A stretch of 64,000 bases of DNA from assembly GCA_015059425.1 (NCBI GenBank), contig SVAM01000001.1, positions 28,027 to 92,026 of the forward strand. The letters are read 5' to 3'. The translations under genes and the position numbers were made by a program. Below are positions 3,414 to 32,844 of the stretch, one piece after another. Below the pieces are notes generated by a model, which worked only from the letters and a program-made list of their open reading frames with translations, was not told the DNA's origin and searched no databases. Position 1 is the first letter of the stretch; each line of letters opens with the position of its first letter. The DNA comes from Bacillota bacterium (GTDB taxonomy: Bacteria > Bacillota_I > Bacilli_A > RF39 > UBA660).

Positions 3414-4016
3414 CTAAGCATTTTCTACTATATCTAGATACTTATAAATAGTTGGATACGATAATTGAGTAACTCTAGCAAAAGCCATTTTGTTTAGAGT
3501 TCCATTCTTATACTTAGGATAATACTGCATAAACACCTTTGGAATATCATCATAAGTTGACTTAGGACGTCCTAACTTCTTACCAGCCTTAACAGCTGTA
3601 GCTAATCCTAAATGGATTTGATGTATTTTCAGCTTTGCTTCCATCTCCCCAAAAACCGCGTTAATTTTTAGCATACCTTCAATCATAGGATCTAAACTAC
3701 CATTCCTACAATCTATATCAATACTTCCAACAATAAGCCTAAATTTCTTTGCAATAATCAAATCAATTATTTCACACAAAACCTTTGTATTCCTACACAA
3801 ACGAGTAATATCAGTAACTATTAAAGTATCACCCTCATTCATTTCTTCTAACAGTGCATCAAGTCCAGGTCTATGTTCCTTCCTACCAGAAATATACTCA
3901 TACCTTATATTAGATATATCTACACCTTTATCAATTAATGCATCAATCTGATACTTGACATCTTGTTTTGACTCGTTGGTGGAACAGCGGCAGTAACCCC
4001 ATACTTTGCTTTCCAT
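3414..4016 (-). CDS. Small serine recombinase of the resolvase/invertase family (catalytic domain plus C-terminal HTH).
   Basis: The N-terminus GYCRCSTNESKQDV has the catalytic Ser. The E-helix reads GMLKINAVFGEMEAKLKIHQ and the arm reads GKKLGRPKS. A C-terminal HTH follows. Confidence 0.8.
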   Translation of the reverse strand: MESKVWGYCRCSTNESKQDVKYQIDALIDKGVDISNIRYEYISGRKEHRPGLDALLEEMNEGDTLIVTDITRLCRNTKVLCEIIDLIIAKKFRLIVGSIDIDCRNGSLDPMIEGMLKINAVFGEMEAKLKIHQIHLGLATAVKAGKKLGRPKSTYDDIPKVFMQYYPKYKNGTLNKMAFARVTQLSYPTIYKYLDIVENA

Positions 4017-4250: not shown

Positions 4251-4688
4251 TCATAAAGTACCAACAGGTATCCAACTAATAATGAAGTTGTTGTCATCAT
4301 CCTCATATTTTAACTTGGTTATACCAGTAGCATCAGCAGTAGTCTCTACTAAACACAACATCATAGGAATATCACTCTTAATCTTATATCCATCATTCGT
4401 GTATTTTATTACTAGAGAGTTAATACCATTCCTATATTGTAACCTATCATAAATATTATCACCAAGCATCTGTTGTAAAAACAACTTGTCAACTTCAATT
4501 GAACCTACACTAAAAAGGAAAGCATGATTAAAGATAGGATCATCTATTACATCAACTACACTTGTTAAATTAATATCTAATTTTTTAAGTTTACTACAGG
4601 GAATAATAAAACTCTCACCATTGTTAAACTTAACATCAATACTCTTTATATCTTTACCATTTATATTATAAAACTTTGACTTGTCCAT
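4251..4688 (-). CDS. Hypothetical protein (145 aa).
   Basis: Single long ORF lying downstream of the peptidase gene on the same strand. Confidence 0.45.
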   Translation of the reverse strand: MDKSKFYNINGKDIKSIDVKFNNGESFIIPCSKLKKLDINLTSVVDVIDDPIFNHAFLFSVGSIEVDKLFLQQMLGDNIYDRLQYRNGINSLVIKYTNDGYKIKSDIPMMLCLVETTADATGITKLKYEDDDNNFIISWIPVGTL

Positions 4689-4767
4689 AATGACTCCTTC
4701 AACTACTTAAATATATAAACTATTGCACACAAAAAAAGATAGCAATGCTATCTCTATATTATAATAA

Positions 4768-6105
4768 TTATTCACTTATTAATTCAATTGCATTTCCACC
4801 TGTATTGGCACTTCCAGGTAAAAAGTTTTCATCCGTATACTTAATCCAGACAGTACCATCACCATTAGAATCAGGAAAATATTTAACACGTGCCCATGTA
4901 TTTCCCCATGAATTTAACACAAGCCAAGATTCTTTGGAATCATCCCATCCAATAATTAACATTCTATGTCCAGGTTGAATATCATCACGCATCTTAATAA
5001 ATGCTGAACCATATTTCTTAACAAGCTCTTTAGTATACAAATTTAGTAATTCTTTTTCATATTCTTCAGCGTTAGGTATATCGTCAAATATATTATATTC
5101 ACTTTTATCAGCATGCACTAAACTCAATATTTTAGAGTACTTATCAAGCAGATTAGTTAATCCATAAGAACGTTGCATAGCTATGGTTTCATAATCTTCA
5201 CCCTTTTCAGATTCATATGATAAATAATAATATTTTTTCTTACCAGGAATTAAATGATCAGAACCAAGAAGTATAGTATTATCTTCTTCATTAATAATTC
5301 CATCAATATTAGCATCTAATCCATTAATCTTCTTCTCAAAATCTATCAAAAATTGATAATCTAGACCTTTCAGCTGTGCAGATATTTCTAATGCCTTAGT
5401 ACTTGACCATATCTCACAAGTATCAGAACTTCCTTGATCTCCAGCTATAACTTTTACTTTATCTCTAATATCAAATTTAGACTCTATATCTTGTTTCTTC
5501 GTTTCAAATGGTTCAATAGCCGCTTCTATCTTTTTCTCTAAACAAACCTTTTCATCTAACATTAAACTTGTTACTGCATTTTGATGTATATCTTCCTCTT
5601 CGTATTTACCTATACAGGTATAATCATATTCTTCACCAAGAATATCATGTCTATATTTATCACTATCAATACATTTATAACCATCATCGTTACGAACAGC
5701 ATAATTACCACCATCACAAGTAATTGGTTCTTCACTTCCACAATAATAGAGATCACCATCAGAACCACAAATTGAAATATTCAATTGCTCAAGGCGTTTA
5801 GACTCATATGAAAATATAGAAACTCCTGAGATAGTAATTACAACAATCGAAGCAAGTATAAATATCTTCATGTAGCTTCTAGTTGTATAATTCTTTTTAA
5901 ATATTAATACAGAACCTACAATACCAATAACGAACAGGATCATCATAAAATTAGTATCCTGTGAAACAAAACCATTTTCATCAAAATAATCAATTATTAA
6001 TAATAATCCTCCAAGAGCTATAGCAAGCAAAAAACTTTGACACAATGATTTTCGTAGTGGATGTTTCTTCTTACTTTCAATCTTATTTTTCTTCACAACA
6101 TACAA
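4768..6105 (-). CDS. Membrane-anchored papain-like (C1-type) cysteine peptidase with a Cys-rich extracytoplasmic region.
   Basis: Two N-terminal TM helices are followed by a Cys-rich stretch. The C-terminus shows Cys...His...Asn signatures: QGSSDTCEIWSS, HRMLIIGWDD and LNSWGNTWA. Confidence 0.55.
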   Translation of the reverse strand: MYVVKKNKIESKKKHPLRKSLCQSFLLAIALGGLLLIIDYFDENGFVSQDTNFMMILFVIGIVGSVLIFKKNYTTRSYMKIFILASIVVITISGVSIFSYESKRLEQLNISICGSDGDLYYCGSEEPITCDGGNYAVRNDDGYKCIDSDKYRHDILGEEYDYTCIGKYEEEDIHQNAVTSLMLDEKVCLEKKIEAAIEPFETKKQDIESKFDIRDKVKVIAGDQGSSDTCEIWSSTKALEISAQLKGLDYQFLIDFEKKINGLDANIDGIINEEDNTILLGSDHLIPGKKKYYYLSYESEKGEDYETIAMQRSYGLTNLLDKYSKILSLVHADKSEYNIFDDIPNAEEYEKELLNLYTKELVKKYGSAFIKMRDDIQPGHRMLIIGWDDSKESWLVLNSWGNTWARVKYFPDSNGDGTVWIKYTDENFLPGSANTGGNAIELISE

Positions 6106-6115
6106 CTCCTTAAAT

Positions 6116-6400
6116 TTAACAACCCCAAACTAACTTTTCAACAAACATTGGGATAAACTTCTCAATAAATAAAACAGCAAGTATAATTTCAGCAACAAGT
6201 AACAAAATAATAATGTTATATCCAAAACCAGCAGATGTAACAGTTAACGCAAGATCAAACGGAATTTGTGTTGCCTCACATATGGAATCAGCTATCATCT
6301 TGTTATTATGAATAAACAATGCACTAACACAAGCAAGAAACAATGACTCCATAACAATTAAGAACTTACTATCTTCAAACCTTCCAGTAAACATAAACAC
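6116..6400 (-). CDS. Small integral membrane protein (94 aa).
   Basis: Hydrophobic ORF lying 10 nt upstream of the peptidase gene in the same operon. Confidence 0.4.
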   Translation of the reverse strand: MFMFTGRFEDSKFLIVMESLFLACVSALFIHNNKMIADSICEATQIPFDLALTVTSAGFGYNIIILLLVAEIILAVLFIEKFIPMFVEKLVWGC

Positions 6401-6517
6401 TCAACTCCTTCCTGACAACTTCTAACATATCTATTATACCACAAAGGTAACATTTGAAGATACCTACATTTAAAAACATTCATGAGAAAATAATATTATC
6501 TAAGGTGGAGGTGTGTT

Positions 6518-6823
6518 ATGGGAAGAAACAATCATTCTTATACAGAAGAACAATTGATTGAATATAGTGAAATTAAAAAGAACATATGCCAAAACATGCG
6601 CATCGCTAGAAAGCTTGCTCAAATGAAAGTAAAAGATGCAGCACCTGCACTTGGCATAGAGCCAGAATCACTAAAAAGGATTGAAGCTCCTAGTTCAAAA
6701 GTAGGTCCATCTTTAGAAGTACTGTGTGGTGCAATAGAATTATATGAAAAAGATCCTAATTTTTACTGGCTAGACTGGGAAGAGAATGAAAAACTATTAG
6801 ATACAGAAAAGGAAGAGAATTAA
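6518..6823 (+). CDS. XRE-family helix-turn-helix transcriptional regulator.
   Basis: HTH segment ICQNMRIARKLAQMKVKDAAPALGIEPESLKRIE. The gene is divergent from the peptidase operon and has GGAGG as its RBS. Confidence 0.6.
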   Translation: MGRNNHSYTEEQLIEYSEIKKNICQNMRIARKLAQMKVKDAAPALGIEPESLKRIEAPSSKVGPSLEVLCGAIELYEKDPNFYWLDWEENEKLLDTEKEEN

Positions 6824-7047
6824 CTCTTCCTTTTAAAGTGTGCTATAAAGTTTGTACGTGAATCATCAGTTGGAGTTAACGATTCAAAAAAGTAATCAGT
6901 ACAATTAACCAGATAATATATTATTTCAAACTCTCTAGCATTGTCTTCTTGACTCTTAAATGTTATCTCAATAACATCAGGTAGTTCCTTAGATAAAGTT
7001 TCCTTTACCTCTTCGAATGTAGGAAACTCAAGAATAAGCTTATTCAA
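6820..7047 (-). CDS. Hypothetical small protein (75 aa).
   Basis: ORF only. Confidence 0.3.
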   Translation of the reverse strand: MNKLILEFPTFEEVKETLSKELPDVIEITFKSQEDNAREFEIIYYLVNCTDYFFESLTPTDDSRTNFIAHFKRKS

Positions 7048-7108
7048 TTACATCACCATCCGCTTGTATAATAACGTGCTTTTAATAATTATACAACTTA
7101 ATGGTTCA

Positions 7109-7828
7109 CTATACAAAGTACTTAAGGTACTTCTTCTTTGAGTTGTAAGTCTTAAACATCTTGTTGTAATCAGCAATTCTAGATTCAACATATCTTGTCT
7201 TGTAAGCTTCAATATTTCTTTTCCTATTTCTAATAGGATCCTCTGCTTTAGCAAAATAATCTAGTCTTGCACCAATATCATCAAATAGTTCTAAAACATT
7301 ACCTCTACCTCTTTGACAGAAAGCTACATCAGACATAAATTGAACCATCTTACGACTCTCATCTAAATTATACTCCTTAACTTCCTTAATTGGAATATCT
7401 AGAGCTGTCAATTCTTCTTCTATAGAAGGAACAAACTTGGCATTACGAATAAAATTTGAAATGATTAACTTGTAAACTAACTCCTTTAATTTCTCATCAG
7501 ATGAATCCTCAGGTGTATAACTCAAAAGTTCTTTTAGTTCCTGCTCACTATTTCTAACAATCTCAGTGACACACATTTGAAATGGTGGAACATTAAAAAA
7601 GTTATTCTTCATACATCTAAGAAACTTGTTCATATTAGAAATGAATTGTTCAGCAGAAATCATACCGGCAGCAGGTTCAATATCAAAAGAAAAGGTTCTA
7701 TCATCAATTCTCTCCACCTCGTTCATTAAACTCCTAGTTGATAGTAAAGTAAATAAAACATTATCATACAAGCGACTCTCCTGCAGCAGAATGTACCTCA
7801 ACATCTCTGCTTTAGTCTCGGTTTTCAA
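7109..7828 (-). CDS. Hypothetical protein (239 aa).
   Basis: Long ORF with a coherent acidic/basic composition. Confidence 0.45.
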   Translation of the reverse strand: MKTETKAEMLRYILLQESRLYDNVLFTLLSTRSLMNEVERIDDRTFSFDIEPAAGMISAEQFISNMNKFLRCMKNNFFNVPPFQMCVTEIVRNSEQELKELLSYTPEDSSDEKLKELVYKLIISNFIRNAKFVPSIEEELTALDIPIKEVKEYNLDESRKMVQFMSDVAFCQRGRGNVLELFDDIGARLDYFAKAEDPIRNRKRNIEAYKTRYVESRIADYNKMFKTYNSKKKYLKYFV

Positions 7829-8167
7829 AATATCACCATCCTCATACTTTGTTATAACGTAATAATCAGGGTTTGGGAGCTACATTTGTGAAAAAAACAT
7901 AAAATCTATGGTATAATGGAATAGACAGATAAATAGTAATTTGTTAATTTGATTAGAAAAAATTAGATGCAAAAATTGAGAAAAAAAGACAAATTAAAAC
8001 CGGAATTTTAAAATAAAAAATGTTATAATATAAGTGTTATTATATAACTAGAAAACCAATATCAGTATTGCCATTAATGGCAGTTGATGGTAATAAAAAA
8101 ACTATCATTGTTTTCTATATTATAGGTTAATCTATCTGCCTTAGATTGAATCGTAAGGAGGTGCACA

Positions 8168-8416
8168 ATGAAAAGAGTAAAAGCTGGTTGTGTTCTTCAA
8201 ACATTAGTATTTTTGCAAAAAGAAGAATTAAATCTAAGTAAGGAAGAAGCACTTAAATTGAATCGTGAAGAAGTAGAACATTATAAAGAATCTTTAGAAA
8301 GAGCAAAAACTAGATATCAAATTCTTGATGTAAAAGAACAGGAAGATGCTTCTATAATTGTTCATGTAAGAAAACATCTTAATTCAACTACTGATGTTGA
8401 AGAATATTTTAATTAA
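8168..8416 (+). CDS. Hypothetical protein (82 aa).
   Basis: AGGAGG RBS 6 nt upstream. A bidirectional terminator hairpin follows at 8420-8450. Confidence 0.45.
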   Translation: MKRVKAGCVLQTLVFLQKEELNLSKEEALKLNREEVEHYKESLERAKTRYQILDVKEQEDASIIVHVRKHLNSTTDVEEYFN

Positions 8417-8454
8417 AAAAAAGTCACAATTTTGTGGCTTTTTAAAATGCAAAA

Positions 8455-8655
8455 TTATTTAAGATTTTTTCTTTTATTCAAGTCCAATCCTTCTAGTTGT
8501 AATTTTATTGCTATAGAATTGATTTCATCATAACTAAAATTCATTTTCTTAAGAGTTTTTCTATCTAAATTCCATAATTTTTCAATAGAATTTATGTTAT
8601 TCTTTTCAAGTTTTTTAAATATTTTATCATTTAGTTCTAATTTAGCTAATTCCAT
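8455..8655 (-). CDS. Small protein resembling the RNA polymerase alpha C-terminal (helix-hairpin-helix) domain.
   Basis: LELNDKIFKKLEKNNINSIEKLWNLDRKTLKKMNFSYDEINSIAIKLQLEGLDL resembles the alpha-CTD HhH. Its start is 2 nt after the CarD-like stop, so the two are in one operon. Confidence 0.4.
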   Translation of the reverse strand: MELAKLELNDKIFKKLEKNNINSIEKLWNLDRKTLKKMNFSYDEINSIAIKLQLEGLDLNKRKNLK

Positions 8656-26918: not shown

Positions 26919-28251
26919 TATTTACCTCCCTGACTTCCGCGGTAACATTACCTTTATGTAATTTTATATTAATTACATCATTTACTTTTAAATTTGAGCT
27001 ATCTTTAATTAAATCATCATTTTTGCTAACTAAAGAATAACCTTTTTCTAAAATTCCTAATGGGTTAACTAACTTTAAAGTATTAATTAAAATTTTATAA
27101 TTATGATCTTTTGTTGTAATAATATTATTAATGCTATTATAAATTGATTTTTTATTATTTACTAGTTTTTCTTTTTTTACCTCAAATAAGCTTAGAGGAT
27201 TTTTTAATACATATGAAATTTTTAAATTATCTAAAATTAATCTACAATTATCTATTTTTTGAGTAATATTATTATTTAATGTATCTATAAACATATCTAA
27301 TTTTTGTTCTTTTAGTTCATATAGTGATAAAGGATTTTTTAATATATACGAACTTGTTATACTTTCTAATTTTAATTTGCTTTTATGTATTAGATTATTT
27401 GTAAATTCATTTAATCTAATTTCATAACCACTTATTATATTATTGATTTCACTAATAGTTGGAACTGCTATTTCTGCTGCTCCAGTTGGAGTAGGAGCTC
27501 GCATATCTGCAACAAAATCAGCGATAGTAATATCTATTTCATGACCTACTGCGCTAATAATTGGCACTCTTGCTTCAAATATCGCACGAGCTACTATTTC
27601 TTCGTTGAATGCCCATAAGTCTTCAATAGAGCCTCCACCTCTACCAACTATTAAAACATCTAAATCGTATTTTCCACTATCTGCTTCTTTTATTTGTTTT
27701 ACTATGTCAGGCGCTGCGTCCTTACCTTGAACTAATGCTGGAAATAATATAGTTTCACAAATTGGAAATCTTCTTTTAATAGTAGATAAAATATCTTTTA
27801 TAGCAGCTCCGGTTGGTGCTGTTATAATACCTATTCTTTTTGGAATCTTTTGAATCTCTTTTTTATATTCAGGATTAAATAAACCTTCTTTAGATAACTT
27901 TTCTTTTAATTTTTCAAATTCTATATATAAGTTCCCTAATCCATCCGGTTCCATTTTATCTACATATATTTGATAAGTTCCTTGCGCTGGATAACAAGAA
28001 ATGCGTCCTTCTACTAAAACGTTCATACCGTCTTCTGGTGCAAACTTTAAGCTGGAAGCGCTCGAATAAAACATAACGGCACTTATTCTAGATGCATCAT
28101 CTTTTAACGTAAAATATAAATGACCTCTAGTATGATTCTTAAAATTTGATATTTCCCCACGTAAATATACTTTTCTTAAATGAGGATTATCATCTATAAT
28201 GCTTTTAATATAATTATTTAATGTGCTAATTTTGATATATTTATCTTGCAT
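26911..28251 (-). CDS. xseA: Exodeoxyribonuclease VII large subunit, with an internal tandem duplication in the C-terminal region.
   Basis: N-terminal OB fold (LRKVYLRGEISNFKNHTRGHLYFTLKD) and catalytic core GRGGGSIEDLWAFNEE. The segment YILKNPLSLYELKEQKL recurs as YVLKNPLSLFEVKKEKL. Confidence 0.85.
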   Translation of the reverse strand: MQDKYIKISTLNNYIKSIIDDNPHLRKVYLRGEISNFKNHTRGHLYFTLKDDASRISAVMFYSSASSLKFAPEDGMNVLVEGRISCYPAQGTYQIYVDKMEPDGLGNLYIEFEKLKEKLSKEGLFNPEYKKEIQKIPKRIGIITAPTGAAIKDILSTIKRRFPICETILFPALVQGKDAAPDIVKQIKEADSGKYDLDVLIVGRGGGSIEDLWAFNEEIVARAIFEARVPIISAVGHEIDITIADFVADMRAPTPTGAAEIAVPTISEINNIISGYEIRLNEFTNNLIHKSKLKLESITSSYILKNPLSLYELKEQKLDMFIDTLNNNITQKIDNCRLILDNLKISYVLKNPLSLFEVKKEKLVNNKKSIYNSINNIITTKDHNYKILINTLKLVNPLGILEKGYSLVSKNDDLIKDSSNLKVNDVINIKLHKGNVTAEVREVNNG

Positions 28252-29005
28252 TATTTATCCCTCTTTTTCTGTTTATTATTTCTAATATTTTTTTATAATG
28301 TGGTTCATATATTCTTATAAATCTATCATTTATTTTAATTTGGTACTTTTTTTCTATAAGTTCAAAAATGGCTTTAATGTTTTCTAACGATGCCTTATTT
28401 ACCATTTTATAAATTATTTCTAAAATTTCCTCATCGCAATTATTTAAAAATTCCTCAAAATCAGAATAAATGCTATTACATAATCTAATTTTATTATTAC
28501 TAATAAATAATTCGGGATTATAATTTATATATGGAGGATTATAGATACTAAAAATATTAAAATTATCAAATAATACTAATTCATTTTCATTAATTAAGCC
28601 CCAATTGCAAGCATGTCTATCATCATTTAAAAATAAAATATCAAAAACATACATTTTTAATATATCAATAGTCAAGTTAGGATTATTGCTTACTTTAGAA
28701 ATGCAATCTATTATTTTTAACAATTCGCATGCCGCTAAAGGTATATAATATCTATTGGCTTCCTTAAAATCATATAATTCATTTATATCTCTAGAAAAAG
28801 AATAAAAATGTCCTTTTATTTTAATACCTACATATTCAATAGAATTTAATTCTAAGTATGTTGCTAAATAGAATCCTATAACTTCTTTTAAATCATCATC
28901 ACTTTTAACGTAATAGTTGCATCCTTCAATATTATATGATTTTACTATTCCTAAACTACAATTTTCAACTATCTCATGAGATTTCTTTTTATCTAGTTTA
29001 ATCAT
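28241..29005 (-). CDS. Hypothetical protein, possibly a HipA-like or atypical kinase fold.
   Basis: LNDDRHACNWGLI resembles a D-x-H-x-x-N catalytic loop. The assignment is weak. Confidence 0.3.
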   Translation of the reverse strand: MIKLDKKKSHEIVENCSLGIVKSYNIEGCNYYVKSDDDLKEVIGFYLATYLELNSIEYVGIKIKGHFYSFSRDINELYDFKEANRYYIPLAACELLKIIDCISKVSNNPNLTIDILKMYVFDILFLNDDRHACNWGLINENELVLFDNFNIFSIYNPPYINYNPELFISNNKIRLCNSIYSDFEEFLNNCDEEILEIIYKMVNKASLENIKAIFELIEKKYQIKINDRFIRIYEPHYKKILEIINRKRGINNAR

Positions 29006-29009
29006 ATAA

Positions 29010-29450
29010 TTACTCTTTAATTATTTTATCTAAAACTGCATTGATAATTTTTCTAACAGATTCATCACTATATTTTTTTGCTAGTTCAATTGCTTCATTA
29101 ATAACTACAACATGAGGTGTATCAGTATATTTAAGTTCATATAAAGCTAGGCGTAATATTGCTGCCCCAGTTTTATCAATACGTGTAATATCCCAATCAA
29201 TCATTTTACTATTAGCAAGTTCATCTAACTTATCTTTATAAGTTACTACTCCATATACCATATCTTTGATAAAGTCATTTTTTACTTCAACATTATTACT
29301 TATTATTTCTTCTATATCTGAATTGATTTTATTACTACTCATCAAATCATATTGATATAAAATTATCATTATTTTTTCTCTTAATTCACTTCTTGTAAGT
29401 GCCATATAAATCACCTCTTTAATTATATTATAATTACTTGTTTTTTTCAA
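29010..29450 (-). CDS. nusB: Transcription antitermination factor NusB.
   Basis: LTRSELREKIMIILYQ...AAILRLALYEL is typical NusB. Confidence 0.85.
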   Translation of the reverse strand: MKKTSNYNIIKEVIYMALTRSELREKIMIILYQYDLMSSNKINSDIEEIISNNVEVKNDFIKDMVYGVVTYKDKLDELANSKMIDWDITRIDKTGAAILRLALYELKYTDTPHVVVINEAIELAKKYSDESVRKIINAVLDKIIKE

Positions 29451-29466
29451 TTTAAATACATGTATC

Positions 29467-29985
29467 TTAACTAGTTATTTCAATATTTTTATTATATTCT
29501 TTACATTTATCTTCCAATAGAGGAAAATTACAACATCTACTGCGAGTTTTATAATCTAATTTTCCATCAAGATATTTATTATATAAATTTTCTGCTCTAC
29601 CAATAATATAGTAAAAGTTTCTATTTAACCATCTTATTTGCAGTTTCAACATATGATTATATTTAGCATTTCTATTATCCTCCACCAAATCCAAATCCAT
29701 AAATTTATAATTAGCGTCTTTTAAAGGAATCATATTATTAAAATTTATTGCACCTAAATTTCCATCAGCAATTTTAATAAAATCTAATGTATTTACCATT
29801 TTTTTATGTTTTGTTTTTGGACTAGATAATGGTGCAAAATACTTGCAACCATTTATTTCAAATAATACTCCAATATAAGGTCTTAATTCTTTAACTCCAC
29901 TATTATAGCACACTTTGTTGTCAAACTTTCTTAAATAATCACAATACTCATAATCAACTTTTACAATTTTAAATTTTTCATTCAT
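29467..29985 (-). CDS. toxN: Type III toxin-antitoxin system toxin, ToxN/AbiQ-family endoribonuclease.
   Basis: The protein is 172 aa. YIGVLFEINGCKYFAPLSSPKTKH, LGAINFNNMIP, YNHMLKLQIRWLNRN and CNFPLLEDKCKEY match ToxN/AbiQ blocks (compare ToxN GIVLEIQGHKYLAPLTSPKKWH). Confidence 0.85.
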   Translation of the reverse strand: MNEKFKIVKVDYEYCDYLRKFDNKVCYNSGVKELRPYIGVLFEINGCKYFAPLSSPKTKHKKMVNTLDFIKIADGNLGAINFNNMIPLKDANYKFMDLDLVEDNRNAKYNHMLKLQIRWLNRNFYYIIGRAENLYNKYLDGKLDYKTRSRCCNFPLLEDKCKEYNKNIEITS

Positions 29986-30069
29986 TCATACCACCCTTCC
30001 ATTTTAAAAATTTAAATGTAATCAAATAATAACATCCAAACTATTGTTTGTCAACATTAAACATAAAAA

Positions 30070-30101
30070 AGATTAGAGTGTGCTCTCTAATCTACTTTTT
30101 T
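30070..30101 (-). terminator. Intrinsic terminator between the repeat array and toxN (a ToxIN-type attenuating terminator).
   Basis: Hairpin agattagag-tgtgct-ctctaatct flanked by an A run and a T run. Confidence 0.5.
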
Positions 30102-30253
30102 CAGTTCCTGTTTCGGCCGGAATCGCCACCTTTTTATTAAGTCCCAATTAATATGGTAGGGAATCACCGCTTTTAATTCAGTTCCTGTTTCGGCCGGAAT
30201 CGCCACCTTTTTATTAAGTCCCTCTTATGGTAGGGAATCACCGCTTTTTTATA
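30100..30253 (-). ncRNA. toxI: ToxI-like antitoxin RNA candidate. It consists of 2 x 77-nt tandem repeats, equivalent to about 4 x ~38-nt units in two alternating variants.
   Basis: ttcagttcctgtttcggccggaatcgccacctttttattaagtccc occurs at 30100 and at 30177. The sub-units GGAATCGCCACCTTTTTATTAAG and GGAATCACCGCTTTTAATTCAG sit directly upstream of toxN and are separated from it by the terminator. Confidence 0.65.
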
Positions 30254-30300
30254 CACAATTTCTTGTGTATTTATAATATATCATATTTTTTTTAAAATTA
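30254..30300 (-). promoter_or_regulatory. Putative promoter for the toxI-toxN transcript, with the inverted repeat tacacaa-ttt-cttgtgta as an operator candidate.
   Basis: An AT-rich -10-like hexamer (minus strand ..tattataaa..) is followed by an 18-bp palindrome at ~30252-30270. The region lies directly after the mutS stop. Confidence 0.35.
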
Positions 30301-30303
30301 CAA

Positions 30304-32844
30304 CTATTCTAATTCCTTTAGTTCAAATAATATATTTATTGCTTCAATTGGGGTCATATGAAGCGGATCAATAGCTTTTAGTTTTTCTCTTAATTCATCG
30401 GTATTATCTTTTGGTTCTTCAAAATTAAGTGCCAGTTGAATATTATCATCCGTTTTAAGTGTTTTTTTAGATTCATTTTCATATTTGCTTAAAATAGCTT
30501 CAGCTCTCTCTAATAAATCATCAGGCATTTTAGCAAGTCTTGCAACATGAATACCATAACTTTTATCAGCTGGCCCATTTTTAACTTTATGTAAGAAAGT
30601 TATCATATTGCCCTCTTCTTTAGCAGCAACATGAACATTTTTCACATTTAAAAATTCACTCTCTAATCTTGTAAGTTCATGATAATGTGTTGAAAATAAA
30701 GTTTTACACTTAATATTTTTAGCAACATATTCAAGTATTGCTTGAGCAAGACTCATCCCATCAAATGTTGCAGTTCCTCTTCCTAGTTCATCAAATAATA
30801 TTAACGAGTTAGACGTAGCATTAACTAAAGCATTTCTTGCTTCTTTCATTTCAACCATAAATGTTGATTCGCCACTTACCAAATCATCACTAGCCCCAAT
30901 TCTTGTAAATATTTTATCTATAATAGGTAAATTAGCGCTTTTAGCAGGTACAAAAGAACCCATTTGAGCCATGATAACTATAATAGCAAGTTCTCGCATA
31001 TATGTAGATTTACCACTCATATTCGGACCAGTTATTAATAAAATATCAGTACTATTATCCATTATAATATCATTTGGTACATACATATTTTTACTTACAC
31101 ATTCTACTACTGGATGTCTACCATCAATAATTTCAATTTTATTTTCTAAATTCAGATTTGGTTTAACTAAATTATATTCCTCACTACAAACTGCTAAAGA
31201 ACATAAAACATCAAGTTCACTAATAATTTCTGCAGTCTCTTTTAAACTTAATACTTTGTTCTTAATAATTTCTCTTATTTCACAGAATAAATTATATTCT
31301 AATTCAAATATTTTTTCTTCAGCATTTAAGATTAATGATTCTTTTTCTTTTAATTCCGGAGAAATAAAACGTTCACAATTAGCTAAAGTTTGACGTCTTT
31401 CCCATCCCAAATCTTCACTTACATATTGAGCTTGTCCTTTAGATATTTCAATGTAATAACCAAATACTCTATTAAAACCAACTTTTAAATTTTTAATACC
31501 CGTAGATTCTTTGATTTCAGATTCAAATTTAGATATAAAATCTTTACCGCCAGTTCGAACACTTTTTAATTCATCTAATTCTTTATTATATCCATCTTTT
31601 ATTAAATACCCCTCTTTAATACTTAGAGGAGGATTTTCATAAATACTATTTTCAAGTAGATTAAATATTTCAGTATGAGTATTAATTTTATATGAAAAAC
31701 CTAATTCGCTAATTATATTTTTTATTCTTGGTAGTACACTTAAAGAATTCTTTATTTGTAATAAATCGCGAGCATTTAAATTACCACATATAACTTTAGC
31801 GCATAATCTTTCTATGTCATATATTTCAAATAATAAATTTCTTAATTCATCTTTTAGCAAAAATTCATTATTTAATACTTCTAATTTATCATATCTATTA
31901 TTTAATTCATTTATATCTCTTAAAGGGTTTAATAACCAAGCCTTTAATTTTCTAGAACCCATCGCAGTTTTCGTTTTATCAAGTAACCATAATAGAGAAT
32001 AAGTTCTTTCTTTTAATCTTAATGTTTCTACAAGTTCTAAATTTCTAACGGTATGAATATCCATTTCTAAATAATTATTCTTATTTATAATATTTACGTT
32101 AGATACATGACTTAAATCTTTTAATTCTTTAATAACTAAATAATGTAGTAAATGTCTAACACCTTGTTTAACCCTTACGTCTTCAATATTTTCAATAAGC
32201 GTTTCATAACCGCTTACTAAATACTCATCGCTTATAGATATTTCAATACCATAATTGTTTTTTAATATATTAATAAGCTCACTATCCAAATTATTTTCTA
32301 ATAAAACTTCTTTAATATTTAAATGTAGTATTTCATTTATTAGTTTTTCTTTATTATGTTCTACATTTAAACTATTTAATTCACCAGTAGATATATCAGC
32401 ATATGTAATTAAATATAAATATTCTAAATCAAGGATACTTGCAATATAATTATTATCATGTTCATTTAAACTTTCTAAATTTATAACAGTACCTTTAGAT
32501 ATTACTTCTACTACCCCTCTTTTTACAGTACCCTTAACATTTTTAGCATCTTCAAGTTGTTCACAAATAGCAACTTTGTATCCTTTTTCTACTAATTTTT
32601 CTAAATAAGGATTAACACTATGAAAAGGAACACCGCACATTGGAATACGTTCTTTTAAACCAGCATTTTTACCTGTTAAAGTAAGTTCCAGTTCACGAGA
32701 TGCAATAATACCATCTTCAAAAAAGAGTTCATAAAAATCTCCCAAACGAAAAAACAATAATTCTTCTTGATAATTATCTTTTATTTCCATATATTGTTTC
32801 ATCATGGGACTTAATTCTGCCCTATTTACTTCATTTCTATTCAT
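30304..32844 (-). CDS. mutS: DNA mismatch repair protein MutS.
   Basis: 846 aa with Walker A GPNMSGKSTYMR and the MutS domain order. The start reads MNRNEVN...LSPMMKQY. Confidence 0.9.
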   Translation of the reverse strand: MNRNEVNRAELSPMMKQYMEIKDNYQEELLFFRLGDFYELFFEDGIIASRELELTLTGKNAGLKERIPMCGVPFHSVNPYLEKLVEKGYKVAICEQLEDAKNVKGTVKRGVVEVISKGTVINLESLNEHDNNYIASILDLEYLYLITYADISTGELNSLNVEHNKEKLINEILHLNIKEVLLENNLDSELINILKNNYGIEISISDEYLVSGYETLIENIEDVRVKQGVRHLLHYLVIKELKDLSHVSNVNIINKNNYLEMDIHTVRNLELVETLRLKERTYSLLWLLDKTKTAMGSRKLKAWLLNPLRDINELNNRYDKLEVLNNEFLLKDELRNLLFEIYDIERLCAKVICGNLNARDLLQIKNSLSVLPRIKNIISELGFSYKINTHTEIFNLLENSIYENPPLSIKEGYLIKDGYNKELDELKSVRTGGKDFISKFESEIKESTGIKNLKVGFNRVFGYYIEISKGQAQYVSEDLGWERRQTLANCERFISPELKEKESLILNAEEKIFELEYNLFCEIREIIKNKVLSLKETAEIISELDVLCSLAVCSEEYNLVKPNLNLENKIEIIDGRHPVVECVSKNMYVPNDIIMDNSTDILLITGPNMSGKSTYMRELAIIVIMAQMGSFVPAKSANLPIIDKIFTRIGASDDLVSGESTFMVEMKEARNALVNATSNSLILFDELGRGTATFDGMSLAQAILEYVAKNIKCKTLFSTHYHELTRLESEFLNVKNVHVAAKEEGNMITFLHKVKNGPADKSYGIHVARLAKMPDDLLERAEAILSKYENESKKTLKTDDNIQLALNFEEPKDNTDELREKLKAIDPLHMTPIEAINILFELKELE

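Follow-up and report, generated by a model that had tools for sequence, protein, structure and literature searches.

The region between mutS and nusB in the 64-kb window (the whole stretch of DNA that was analysed) holds a toxin-like gene preceded by a repeat array and several predicted signals. All of these features lie on the minus strand and are given in the direction of transcription:

30304-32844, minus strand: mutS, upstream flank, outside the module; five MutS Pfam domains
30275-30303, minus strand: P1, predicted toxI promoter; -35 TTGTAA at 30298-30303, 17-nt spacer, extended -10 TGATATATT at 30275-30283
30251-30270, minus strand: 5' leader hairpin ATACACAAGAAATTGTGTAT, 8-bp stem with a GAAA loop; predicted 5' end of the toxI transcript
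30102-30250, minus strand: toxI-like antitoxin RNA array, four units in the order A1-B1-A2-B2 (TRF, covariance model R1)
30213-30250, minus strand: unit A1, 38 nt
30175-30212, minus strand: unit B1, 38 nt
30136-30174, minus strand: unit A2, 39 nt
30102-30135, minus strand: unit B2, 34 nt
30064-30101, minus strand: terminal A-run (30096-30101) and predicted intrinsic terminator (9-bp stem at 30070-30093, 6-nt loop, U-tract)
30026-30054, minus strand: P2, second predicted promoter, past the toxI terminator and ahead of toxN; -35 TTGACA at 30049-30054, 17-nt spacer, extended -10 TGTTATTAT at 30026-30034
29991-30000 and 29467-29985, minus strand: toxN, RBS GGAAGGGTGG and coding sequence; 172 aa, ToxN/AbiQ-family endoribonuclease by sequence match
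29010-29450, minus strand: nusB, downstream flank, outside the module; Pfam NusB, E 2e-31

The original prediction had placed the locus between these two core genes; both flanks were confirmed, and the placement recurs in relatives. The -35 box of P1 directly follows the mutS stop codon (30304-30306), and no terminator was found for mutS before P1. On the other side, the nusB coding sequence most likely covers 29010-29405 from an ATG, giving a 131-aa product, with a promoter-like site of its own (TTGAAA-17-TATAAT, 11/12) at 29422-29450. The exact 131-aa NusB sequence occurs on 23 contigs.

The 172-aa open reading frame (ORF) at 29467-29985 is present as predicted, with all four of the peptide blocks quoted for it, and by homology it is a full-length ToxN/AbiQ endoribonuclease with its catalytic residues kept. 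The sole Pfam family that it matches is ToxN_toxin (PF13958; E 5.8e-46; score 157 bits, cutoff 25; alignment to profile positions 2-159 of 159), its E-value with the PADLOC AbiQ model is 1.1e-38, and phmmer against PDB sequences returned solved ToxN and AbiQ proteins (4ATO, 7.3e-24; 2XD0, 3.1e-20; 7D8O, 8.4e-17; 4GLK, 4.8e-9). The ToxN/AbiQ assignment, first made from the peptide blocks, thus passed the profile searches and membership in the ToxN family is established; 1567 relatives were found at E <= 1e-10. Residues R35, S54, S55, K57, Y109 and Q116 align with K33, T52, S53, K55, Y110 and Q117 of ToxN_Pa/Ec, in which K33, T52, S53 and K55 are catalytic, and arginine replaces K33 in E. coli clusters 4 and 5 as well (PMC8860590). 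The equivalents of R35, S54, S55, K57 and Q116 are invariant in 26/26 relatives, that of Y109 only among the nine closest. An NCBIfam search of the product gave no match. Membership of the CptIN or TenpIN families was considered and rejected: ToxN_toxin is the only Pfam match, and the PDB sequence matches at E <= 1 are all ToxN or AbiQ, the CptN (E. rectale) chain being absent. CptIN repeats measure 40-48 nt and TenpIN repeats 39-57 nt.

A tandem array of four ~38-nt sub-repeats in two variants had been described at about 30100-30253, and all of this was found there: TRF reports a period of 77 (2.0 copies) and a period of 37 (3.5 copies). The two 77-nt copies, however, are not perfect as had been claimed. 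Aligned without gaps as originally delimited, they match at 58/77 positions; with gaps allowed, they measure 74 nt (upstream) and 77 nt (downstream) and differ in the A-unit loop by a 3-nt indel and two mismatches (93% matches and 4% indels by TRF). Every unit opens with an A-run where ToxN is predicted to cut, and the terminal A-run at 30096-30101 would be the last cleavage junction. The array is a local GC peak (43% versus 25.8% in the window). Known toxIN repeats are 31-62 nt long and present in 1.9-5.6 copies (PMC3401426 Table 2), a range that includes the four 34-39-nt units seen here; the 38-nt period, once taken as the mark of a sub-family, is simply the family mean in the same table.

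Each unit contains a predicted H-type pseudoknot with two stems, S1 and S2. In the A units these are GGU/ACC and UCCC/GGGA, and in the B units (U)GGC/GCC(G) and UUCC/GGAA, so that within the window the A and B stems differ by compensatory changes. Across 142 distinct units from relatives, S1 is paired in 88.7%, whereas of six slid registers five give 31-34% and one (+3) gives 62%; one S1 position shows GC in 118 cases and AU in 22, another shows UG in 88, UA in 30 and CG in 22. For S2, whose 3' strand was misaligned by MAFFT because loop lengths vary, the test was anchored on the C-run and G-run. The third S2 pair is T-A in 101 units, G-C in 13, A-T in 6 and G-U in 1, with mismatches in 10; G goes with C (Fisher p 7e-16) and A with T (p 2e-5), and the lengths of the C-run and G-run covary too. 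Both predicted stems are supported by covariation across the 142 units, which implies that selection still acts on the RNA structure. When single units were folded with nested pairs only, their stability did not exceed that of shuffles (z -0.8 and +0.6), so thermodynamics gives no independent support; for short pseudoknots stabilised by protein, such a lack of excess stability is expected.

If the repeats had nothing to do with the ORF, they might be a tandem duplication that arose by chance, a short peptide gene, or an element of REP-like or small CRISPR-like type. The one result in favour of such a reading is that Rfam does not recognise them: the ToxI model RF02519 (gathering score 50 bits) had no match in 29900-30400 with E-values up to 10, and across the whole window it had none that reached the gathering score. 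Weak Rfam matches to ctRNA_pT181, RAGATH-19 and queA (E 1.6-9.2) were set aside as chance. RF02519 scores the units of the Bacillus thuringiensis plasmid pAW63 at 59, 47 and 40 bits and one Fusobacterium unit at just 22.5 bits, from which we conclude that the model is narrow. The covariance search suggested in the original prediction failed with the curated model and succeeded with R1, a model built from the repeats of non-clade ToxN loci only: in the 64-kb window R1 found exactly the four array units (E 2e-6, 2e-6, 3.5e-6 and 9e-3), the next match having an E-value of 0.68. Moreover, repeats of the family to which these units belong precede ToxN genes at well over 100 independent loci, in more than one kind of genomic context (several were seen), and nearly all of 80 genome loci encoding a ToxN relative have a 34-37-nt array of ~3 units with a hairpin upstream. 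This co-occurrence establishes the homology of the repeats and refutes an unrelated origin. The units also abut without spacers, and the ORFs that overlap them are all <= 39 aa, five of six with a non-ATG start (GTG/TTG) and one with ATG; a protein-coding account was rejected on this basis, in agreement with the original prediction that no protein ORF explains the repeats. We regard an unrelated origin as vanishingly improbable. The repeats are ToxI-like in architecture and lie outside RF02519 as curated, which means that the curated model misses a large, abundant ToxI branch (well over 100 loci); a broader model could be started from the alignment of 142 units, in which both stems covary. In IMG/VR, the pattern AAAGCGGTGATTCCN{3,6}CC, used to look for toxI mimics carried by phages, gave 38 single matches, none with a nearby ToxN gene or array; they are one to three nucleotide-offset matches of a single site, consistent with chance. 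We found no phage-related context in the window.

The alternation of two unit variants proved real and is kept in the closest clade. When metagenomes were scanned for closer relatives, no locus exceeded 61% identity and four-unit arrays were absent, which leaves the clade with eight loci and, in addition, L206 and L207. Across it, the super-period of 74-80 nt and the identity of A and B are maintained: between loci, A units are 82% and B units 78% identical to their counterparts, versus 74% between A and B within one locus. By these comparisons, A and B are anciently diverged, alternating classes that predate the clade. Complete clade arrays have two or four units, and the partly read arrays of L081 and L085 are also strictly A/B-alternating. 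The conserved super-period would suit an antitoxin consisting of a ~77-nt A+B di-unit, or of the uncleaved array, with ToxN cutting only one junction type, and the two junctions do differ (CUUAAU/AAAAAGG versus CUGAAUU/AAAAGCGG, the slash marking the junction). Yet an A-run of 4 or more is kept at both, as at all junctions in the three-unit relatives described below, and A and B each keep both stems through compensatory changes. Known ToxN and AbiQ cut at every repeat (PMC7781912), and 77 nt would exceed the 31-62-nt family range (PMC3401426). A di-unit or uncleaved antitoxin thus appears very unlikely, and single units remain the preferred form.

The promoter-like box and the palindrome claimed upstream of the array were both located. 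P1 scores 9/12 with TG in a consensus scan; sites of this quality are common (16 found versus 9.9 expected in a 26% GC genome), those at 11/12 rare. The P1 layout (TTGACA or TTGTAA, 17 nt, TGnTAtAAT) is conserved in L001, L002, L003 and L007, and P1 would act as the toxI promoter. The palindrome at 30251-30270 has a folding energy of -8.0 kcal/mol (z -8.4, 0/200 shuffles as stable) and directly adjoins the A-run with which A1 opens. Among relatives its position is conserved and its sequence differs (GCAAAGAAATTTGC in L001, AGCAAGAAATTTGCT in L002, GCTACAATGTAGC in L074, GCTACTTAGTAGC in L033); the hairpin may stabilise the transcript or be a by-product of processing. At the other end of the array, a terminator scan gave two sites, the two strands of one hairpin, versus 0.3 expected from shuffles. 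This hairpin (-11.4 kcal/mol, z -3.4) has a counterpart at the equivalent position in nearly all related loci. The original prediction was right about the hairpin with its T-run, but not in placing it just before the toxN RBS, from which the U-tract is separated by ~64 nt that include P2.

P2 had been missed. It is a near-consensus, sigma-70-type site (TTGACA-17-TGnTATTAT, 11/12 with TG), and a site scoring 11-12/12 stands at this position in 8/8 closest-clade loci (the window, L001, L002, L003, L081, L082, L084 and L085), as well as in L007, L018 and L059. With P1 upstream of the array and a conserved P2 between terminator and toxN, there are two candidate promoters for toxN. The architecture had been called exactly that of toxI, terminator and toxN; the order of promoter, repeats, terminator and toxN stands, but because of the second promoter the arrangement is not exactly canonical. 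The locus could nonetheless be a canonical ToxIN with a single promoter, P2 being fortuitous or non-functional and toxN being reached by terminator read-through as in ToxIN_Pa, where one promoter is combined with ~90% termination and ~10% read-through (PMC4147584). AT-rich DNA yields many promoter-like matches, the site is absent from pAW63 and from most three-unit loci, and in most relatives, which lack it, only 47-80 nt separate the array from the ATG. Against this stand the quality of the site and its constant 17-nt spacing, both kept while spacers and flanks have diverged among loci, and its probability in composition-preserving shuffles, 1.5e-4 to 6e-3 per locus. The terminator-to-ATG distance is also systematically longer with P2 (mean 80 nt) than without it (56 nt). 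The association of P2 with longer terminator U-tracts is weak (p 0.03), the hairpin finder having absorbed T-runs into A-T stem extensions, and we give it no weight. We consider a single-promoter arrangement rather unlikely, and P2 is predicted to be active.

Linkage of mutS to toxIN is also seen in L003, L081, L082, L084, L207, L037 and L077, and the mutS-toxIN-nusB synteny is kept at MutS identities of 80-85%. The locus in L207 is identical to that in the window. No empty mutS-nusB site was found among the fetched loci. That toxIN is repeatedly present downstream of mutS, over a range of 60-85% MutS identity, points either to a module long resident in the chromosome or to a hotspot where cassettes turn over; a chromosomal location is usual for toxIN (57/67 loci; PMC3401426 Table 2). 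In L077 a decayed toxI array occupies the mutS position, and a variable PDC-M03A-like gene lies in the neighborhood; both observations fit a cassette-turnover hotspot. The decayed array would also suit a decayed or domesticated remnant, in which the toxin is inactive or the repeats serve as a cis-acting leader, as would the placement among core genes with no mobile-element signature, and the strain variant L206, whose array has only two units (in a gapped scaffold where a run of Ns interrupts toxN). However, the ORF in the window is intact with its catalytic residues kept, the same locus recurs in many assemblies, and in species where MutS is 80-85% identical, ToxN is kept at 65-73% identity with an intact array. 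Given also the selection on RNA structure implied by the covariation of the repeats, a remnant is extremely unlikely.

The computational checks proposed in the original prediction favor its type III toxin-antitoxin reading, which the protein match, R1 repeats, covariation and element order all support, with the qualification that RF02519 misses the repeats, and the locus is very probably a chromosomal module of the ToxIN family. In the proposed mechanism, P1 would drive a short non-coding RNA consisting of the hairpin, four ~38-nt ToxI-like units in A-B-A-B order and the intrinsic terminator. By analogy with the cleavage motifs of ToxN_Bt (A^AAAA) and AbiQ (A^AAA), ToxN, as a sequence-specific endoribonuclease, would cut this precursor in the A-runs between units. 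The freed units would fold as H-type pseudoknots whose single-stranded tails fill the ToxN active site, closing an inactive ring of protein and RNA. Should the labile RNA fall or the complex be disturbed, for example by phage shut-off of host transcription, free ToxN would be released and would degrade host and phage RNA, aborting the infection; rescue by the antitoxin, toxicity and an anti-phage role are all predicted on this model.

The closest clade would depart from this general scheme in two respects. First, a strong promoter dedicated to toxN, P2, would follow the toxI terminator, which predicts separate toxin and antitoxin transcripts. Second, the array is built of two anciently diverged, alternating unit types. 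On the boldest reading, the antitoxin would be an obligate A+B hetero-pair forming an even ring (2:2 or 4:4) with ToxN, and the separate promoters P1 and P2 would set the ratio. Such a pairing is compatible with the data because the A/B classes are older than the clade, both keep their stems, and the arrays are even or alternating. To our knowledge, all solved ToxIN complexes are 3:3 triangles, and we think an obligate pair improbable; were it true, promoter strength and not terminator read-through would set the toxin:antitoxin ratio. The A/B units, the predicted toxN promoter and the leader hairpin bear on two questions about type III systems: what sets the proportion of toxin to antitoxin, and what determines the stoichiometry of the ring. 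The basic picture is unchanged: judged by its sequence, the locus is an ordinary ToxIN, readily placed in a known family of defence and toxin-antitoxin systems, and the A-B-A-B array and P2 are modest oddities. Its value is that of a well-supported ToxIN in uncultured gut Bacilli or 'Tenericutes'-like bacteria (25.8% GC), a lineage of which little is known.

Among known systems, ToxIN_Bt of B. thuringiensis pAW63 (PDB 4ATO) gives the best solved-structure match (E 7.3e-24; 34.5% identity by tblastn) and has the same order of array, terminator and toxN. Compared by eye, the unit layout is alike (A-run boundary, xxGGUG, S2a, UACC, loop, S2b) with an identical S1 (GGU/ACC), and by the same visual reading of S1 and S2 the repeats on pAW63, too, differ from one another, their S2 changes being compensatory; the junctions here agree with its A-rich cleavage motif, A^AAAA (PMC7781912). 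Unlike the locus described here, ToxIN_Bt is plasmid-borne, has 2.9 copies of a 34-nt unit instead of four units of 34-39 nt in two alternating classes, and is scored by RF02519 at 40-59 bits where nothing is scored here. The pAW63 terminator abuts the RBS, thus leaving no room for a second promoter.

ToxIN_Pa (Pectobacterium atrosepticum pECA1039; 2XD0, 2XDB, 2XDD) and ToxIN_Ec (7D8O) belong to the same protein family (E 3e-20 and 8e-17), and the equivalents of their catalytic K33, T52, S53 and K55 are present here. Their toxin processes an antitoxin repeat that forms a pseudoknot, an arrangement to which the locus appears analogous. They differ in having 5.5 identical 36-nt units, as opposed to four non-identical ones, and a cleavage motif of AA^AU or GAAAU, as opposed to a plain A-run; W57 and F88 of ToxN_Pa are replaced by K59 and N84. 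AbiQ/antiQ (Lactococcus lactis pSRQ900, 4GLK) shares with the locus a low-GC Gram-positive host and the PADLOC AbiQ match (1.1e-38), and has 2.8 copies of a 35-nt repeat plus a terminator, cut in an A-run (A^AAA; PMC7781912). It is more distant (PDB E 4.8e-9), plasmid-borne and made of a single unit type.

Outside the clade, the locus can be compared with the unannotated three-unit toxIN loci (L004-L080) of metagenome-assembled genomes from uncultured gut Bacilli, 'Tenericutes' and Clostridia, whose ToxN is 54-62% identical. They have homologous repeats (consensus AAAAAAGCGGTGATTCCAGCCATAAATGGAACTT) and the same leader hairpin and terminator, and some adjoin mutS (L037, L077) or lie near nusB-xseA (L074). 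Their arrays average ~3.2 units of 34-37 nt, versus four of 34-42 nt in the closest clade, and they lack both the (U/G)AAU 3' extension and the A/B alternation; most also lack P2 and have a short terminator-to-ATG spacer.

The minus-strand open reading frame at 29467-29985, originally predicted to encode a ToxN/AbiQ-like toxin of 172 amino acids, contains all four of the peptide blocks quoted in support of that assignment. A profile search bore the assignment out: the product gives an end-to-end match to the Pfam ToxN_toxin profile (PF13958; 157 bits with the cutoff at 25, E 5.8e-46) and also matches the PADLOC AbiQ model (1.1e-38), with no match in an NCBIfam search. Among solved toxins, it matches ToxN of Bacillus thuringiensis (4ATO, 7.3e-24), Pectobacterium atrosepticum (2XD0, 3.1e-20) and Escherichia coli (7D8O, 8.4e-17), and AbiQ of Lactococcus lactis (4GLK, 4.8e-9). 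The active-site and RNA-holding residues of E. coli ToxN are K33, T52, S53, K55, Y110 and Q117 (PMC8860590); by alignment to the solved toxins, the equivalents here are R35, S54, S55, K57, Y109 and Q116. E. coli clusters 4 and 5 likewise have arginine in place of K33 (PMC8860590). Five of these six residues do not vary among 26 aligned relatives; the exception, Y109, does not vary among the nine closest. At E <= 1e-10, a large protein database yielded 1567 relatives, of which the best full-length matches share 73% identity; the nearest plasmid-borne toxins are from Fusobacterium (43%), C. botulinum (42%), Lactococcus (40%) and pAW63 of B. thuringiensis (34.5%).

Elements of the locus in coding-strand order, checked base by base (leader hairpin also by folding; terminator by terminator scan and folding; toxN as an ORF). 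P1, predicted promoter of the toxI-like array; P2, second predicted promoter; A1 to B2, repeat units.
30304-30306, minus: mutS stop codon
30298-30303, minus: P1 -35, TTGTAA
30275-30283, minus: P1 extended -10, TGATATATT
30251-30270, minus: 20-nt leader hairpin, ATACACAAGAAATTGTGTAT
30213-30250, minus: unit A1
30175-30212, minus: unit B1
30136-30174, minus: unit A2
30102-30135, minus: unit B2
30096-30101, minus: closing A-run after unit B2
30070-30093, minus: terminator stem, 9 bp, followed by a U-tract
30049-30054, minus: P2 -35, TTGACA
30026-30034, minus: P2 extended -10, TGTTATTAT
29991-30000, minus: toxN RBS, GGAAGGGTGG
29467-29985, minus: toxN, 172 aa, ATG at 29985

A scan of 1.2 kb found two terminator-like sites (0.3 expected), which are the two strands of one hairpin. 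This terminator folds at -11.4 kcal/mol (z -3.4), and the leader hairpin at -8 kcal/mol (z -8.4). GC content peaks locally in the repeat array (43% versus 25.8% for the window), and, as first proposed, no protein-coding frame explains the array: overlapping ORFs are all at most 39 aa, five of six starting with GTG or TTG. Tandem Repeats Finder describes 30100-30252 as period 77 x 2.0 (93% matches, 4% indels) or as period 37 x 3.5 (68% matches). The two 77-nt copies had been called perfect; at the coordinates proposed for them only 58 of 77 positions match ungapped, and a gapped alignment leaves two mismatches and an indel of 3 nt, confined to a single loop. A three-codon out-of-frame mini-ORF, ATGAATGAATGA (29978-29989, minus), overlaps the toxN start, its ATG lying 4 nt upstream of that of toxN with one RBS common to both; it may be incidental or may lower toxN translation. 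Over the whole 64-kb window, ARAGORN found no tRNA genes and no Rfam family reached its gathering score.

For comparison we used 80 genome loci encoding ToxN relatives, almost all from gut MAGs labelled uncultured Bacilli, Tenericutes, Mollicutes or Clostridia. In nearly all, the 420 nt upstream of toxN hold an array of about 3.2 units of 34-37 nt, with a consensus resembling AAAAAAGCGGTGATTCCAGCCATAAATGGAACTT, and then a hairpin. A covariance model (R1) built from 64 units, all from loci outside the window's own clade, was searched against both strands of the 64-kb window. Its significant matches were exactly the four A/B units (E 2e-6, 2e-6, 3.5e-6 and 9e-3), the next best having E 0.68. Each unit is predicted to form an H-type pseudoknot with stems S1 and S2. 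When 142 distinct units are aligned, 88.7% of S1 cells are paired; shifting the register lowers this to 31-34% in five of six cases and to 62% in the remaining one (+3). Pair types at one position are G-C 118 and A-U 22, and at another U-G 88, U-A 30 and C-G 22. Variable loop length made the MAFFT alignment unusable for scoring S2 (xCC with GGx'), which was anchored instead on its C-run and G-run. The pair adjacent to the runs is T-A in 101 units, G-C in 13 and A-T in 6, with 10 mismatches and one G-U (Fisher p 7e-16 for the G-C association and 2e-5 for the A-T one). The two runs also covary in length, with 90 units at 2/2, 16 at 3/3 and 10 at 4/3. The A and B units of the window are distinguished by compensatory changes in S1 (GGU/ACC versus GGC/GCC) as well as S2 (UCCC/GGGA versus UUCC/GGAA). 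Judged by sequence, the repeats are a ToxI-type RNA. The Rfam search proposed for the region failed to recognize them: ToxI (RF02519) gives 59, 47 and 40 bits for the pAW63 units and 22.5 for one Fusobacterium unit, and returns nothing for the window repeats even at E <= 10. RF02519 has a narrow scope, and Rfam annotation at present misses this branch of the ToxI family.

The period of about 38 nt, offered as a hint of a sub-family, equals the mean for toxIN repeats (38.1 nt, range 31-62; PMC3401426 Table 2). The two-variant alternation fared better, as the A and B classes are real and clade-wide, although unit heterogeneity itself is not new: many three-unit arrays contain position-specific units, and the pAW63 repeats also differ mutually. 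Four-unit arrays with a 74-80-nt super-period occur only in the closest clade, namely the window, L001, L002, L003, L081/L082, L084 and L085 (independent assemblies, ToxN identities 65-73%), with none among 80 further metagenome loci. Units of one type are 94% identical within a locus and 82% (A-A) or 78% (B-B) between loci, versus 74% for A against B within one locus. Because same-class identity between loci exceeds A-B identity within a locus, the A/B split predates the clade and has been kept; by sequence comparison the two classes are orthologous across it, and the two-unit block is under concerted evolution. Only A-B is present on L082 and L206, short contigs from the same or a sister species. 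L206 is a 1167-nt scaffold with 94% nucleotide identity to the window locus, one A-B pair, a P2 -35 of TTGGCA and a toxN broken by a run of Ns. These two-unit arrays (L082 compared with L081) may be true copy-number variation or assembly collapse. In L014, L020, L025, L027, L033 and relatives, three-unit arrays have position-specific, non-identical units conserved between loci; the third and last of them may act as a cap that does not fold, since the GG of its S2 3' strand is consistently interrupted (GTGAAC or GCGAAC).

All eight clade loci have a P2-type site in the terminator-toxN gap, matching 11-12 of 12 sigma-70 consensus positions with a 17-18-nt spacer and, in most, a TGn extension; spacer sequences are unrelated among loci, and shuffles that preserve composition give such a site with a probability of 1.5e-4 to 6e-3 per locus. 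Such sites also occur in L007, L018 and L059, and are absent from most three-unit loci and from pAW63. Uncoupled transcription of toxin and antitoxin, with toxN read from P2, is thus plausible, and would depart from the norm, as type III loci are described in reviews as single-promoter bicistronic operons (PMC5086642) and in ToxIN of P. atrosepticum about 90% termination sets the ratio (PMC4147584). A further-reaching proposal, that A and B form an obligate hetero-antitoxin in a ring with an even number of members and that separate transcripts supply toxin and antitoxin, we consider improbable. The hairpin directly 5' of the first A-run is conserved family-wide in structure, not in sequence; we infer an RNA element, either a 5' stabilizer or a processing by-product. 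An operator is less likely, as no gene for a DNA-binding protein is present in the cassette.

The flanking genes are, as predicted, mutS (five MutS domains) and nusB, the latter with its own promoter (11/12) at 29422-29450. The exact NusB sequence is found on 23 contigs, one of which (L207) is identical over the entire toxIN locus. The order mutS-toxIN-nusB-(ORF of about 250 aa)-xseA recurs in L081 and L084, where MutS (83-85%), NusB (83-89%) and XseA (82-89%) are well conserved and ToxN is only 73% identical; L003 has this order without the 250-aa ORF, nusB adjoining xseA (MutS 80%, ToxN 65%). In L037 and L077 toxIN also lies downstream of mutS, both proteins being about 60% identical, and neither has an ATG-initiated ORF of at least 80 aa on either strand in the roughly 4 kb 3' of toxN (about 4520-8500). 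Other clade members are sited elsewhere; L001, like L007, has the cassette between gatB and a ThiF-like gene. Just upstream of its live one-unit cassette (toxN at 4001), and likewise downstream of mutS, L077 carries a decayed pair of toxI-like units that has a terminator of its own but no toxin gene (about 3640-3740), an arrangement suggesting that a cassette decayed here and was replaced. The window ORF between nusB and xseA (254 aa; 28241-29005, minus) weakly matches a HipA_C kinase-like family (Pfam E 7e-4, below cutoff) and also matches the PADLOC 'phage defence candidate' PDC-M03A (E 6e-8). It diverges strongly among relatives, with 47% identity in L081 and 29% in L084, where flanking identity is 82% or more, and could represent, next to toxIN, a second variable gene of defence type. 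Long chromosomal residence of a fast-evolving toxin with occasional cassette turnover would fit these patterns; a recombination hotspot fits equally. Chromosomal location is usual for the family (57 of 67 loci; PMC3401426 Table 2).

The original ToxIN reading is supported, and by its sequence the locus is a new member of that family, of specialist interest rather than surprising, with the A/B alternation, P2 and leader hairpin as variant features that are conserved at sequence level and putative in function. Partly from what is shown and mostly by homology, we infer that P1 would yield a hairpin-capped four-unit precursor whose 3' end is at the terminator. ToxN, expressed from P2, by read-through or both, would cut it in the A-runs, by analogy with ToxN_Bt and AbiQ, which cleave at A^AAAA and A^AAA (PMC7781912). 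The pseudoknotted units would then lock ToxN in a closed, inactive ring, and loss of the RNA would free the nuclease. The basis for a possible anti-phage role is family precedent and the PADLOC match. Read by eye, the characterised ToxI units of pAW63 have the same layout and the same S1 (GGU/ACC) as those of the window, and likewise show compensatory S2 changes between units; unlike the window, pAW63 has a terminator that abuts the RBS, and no P2.
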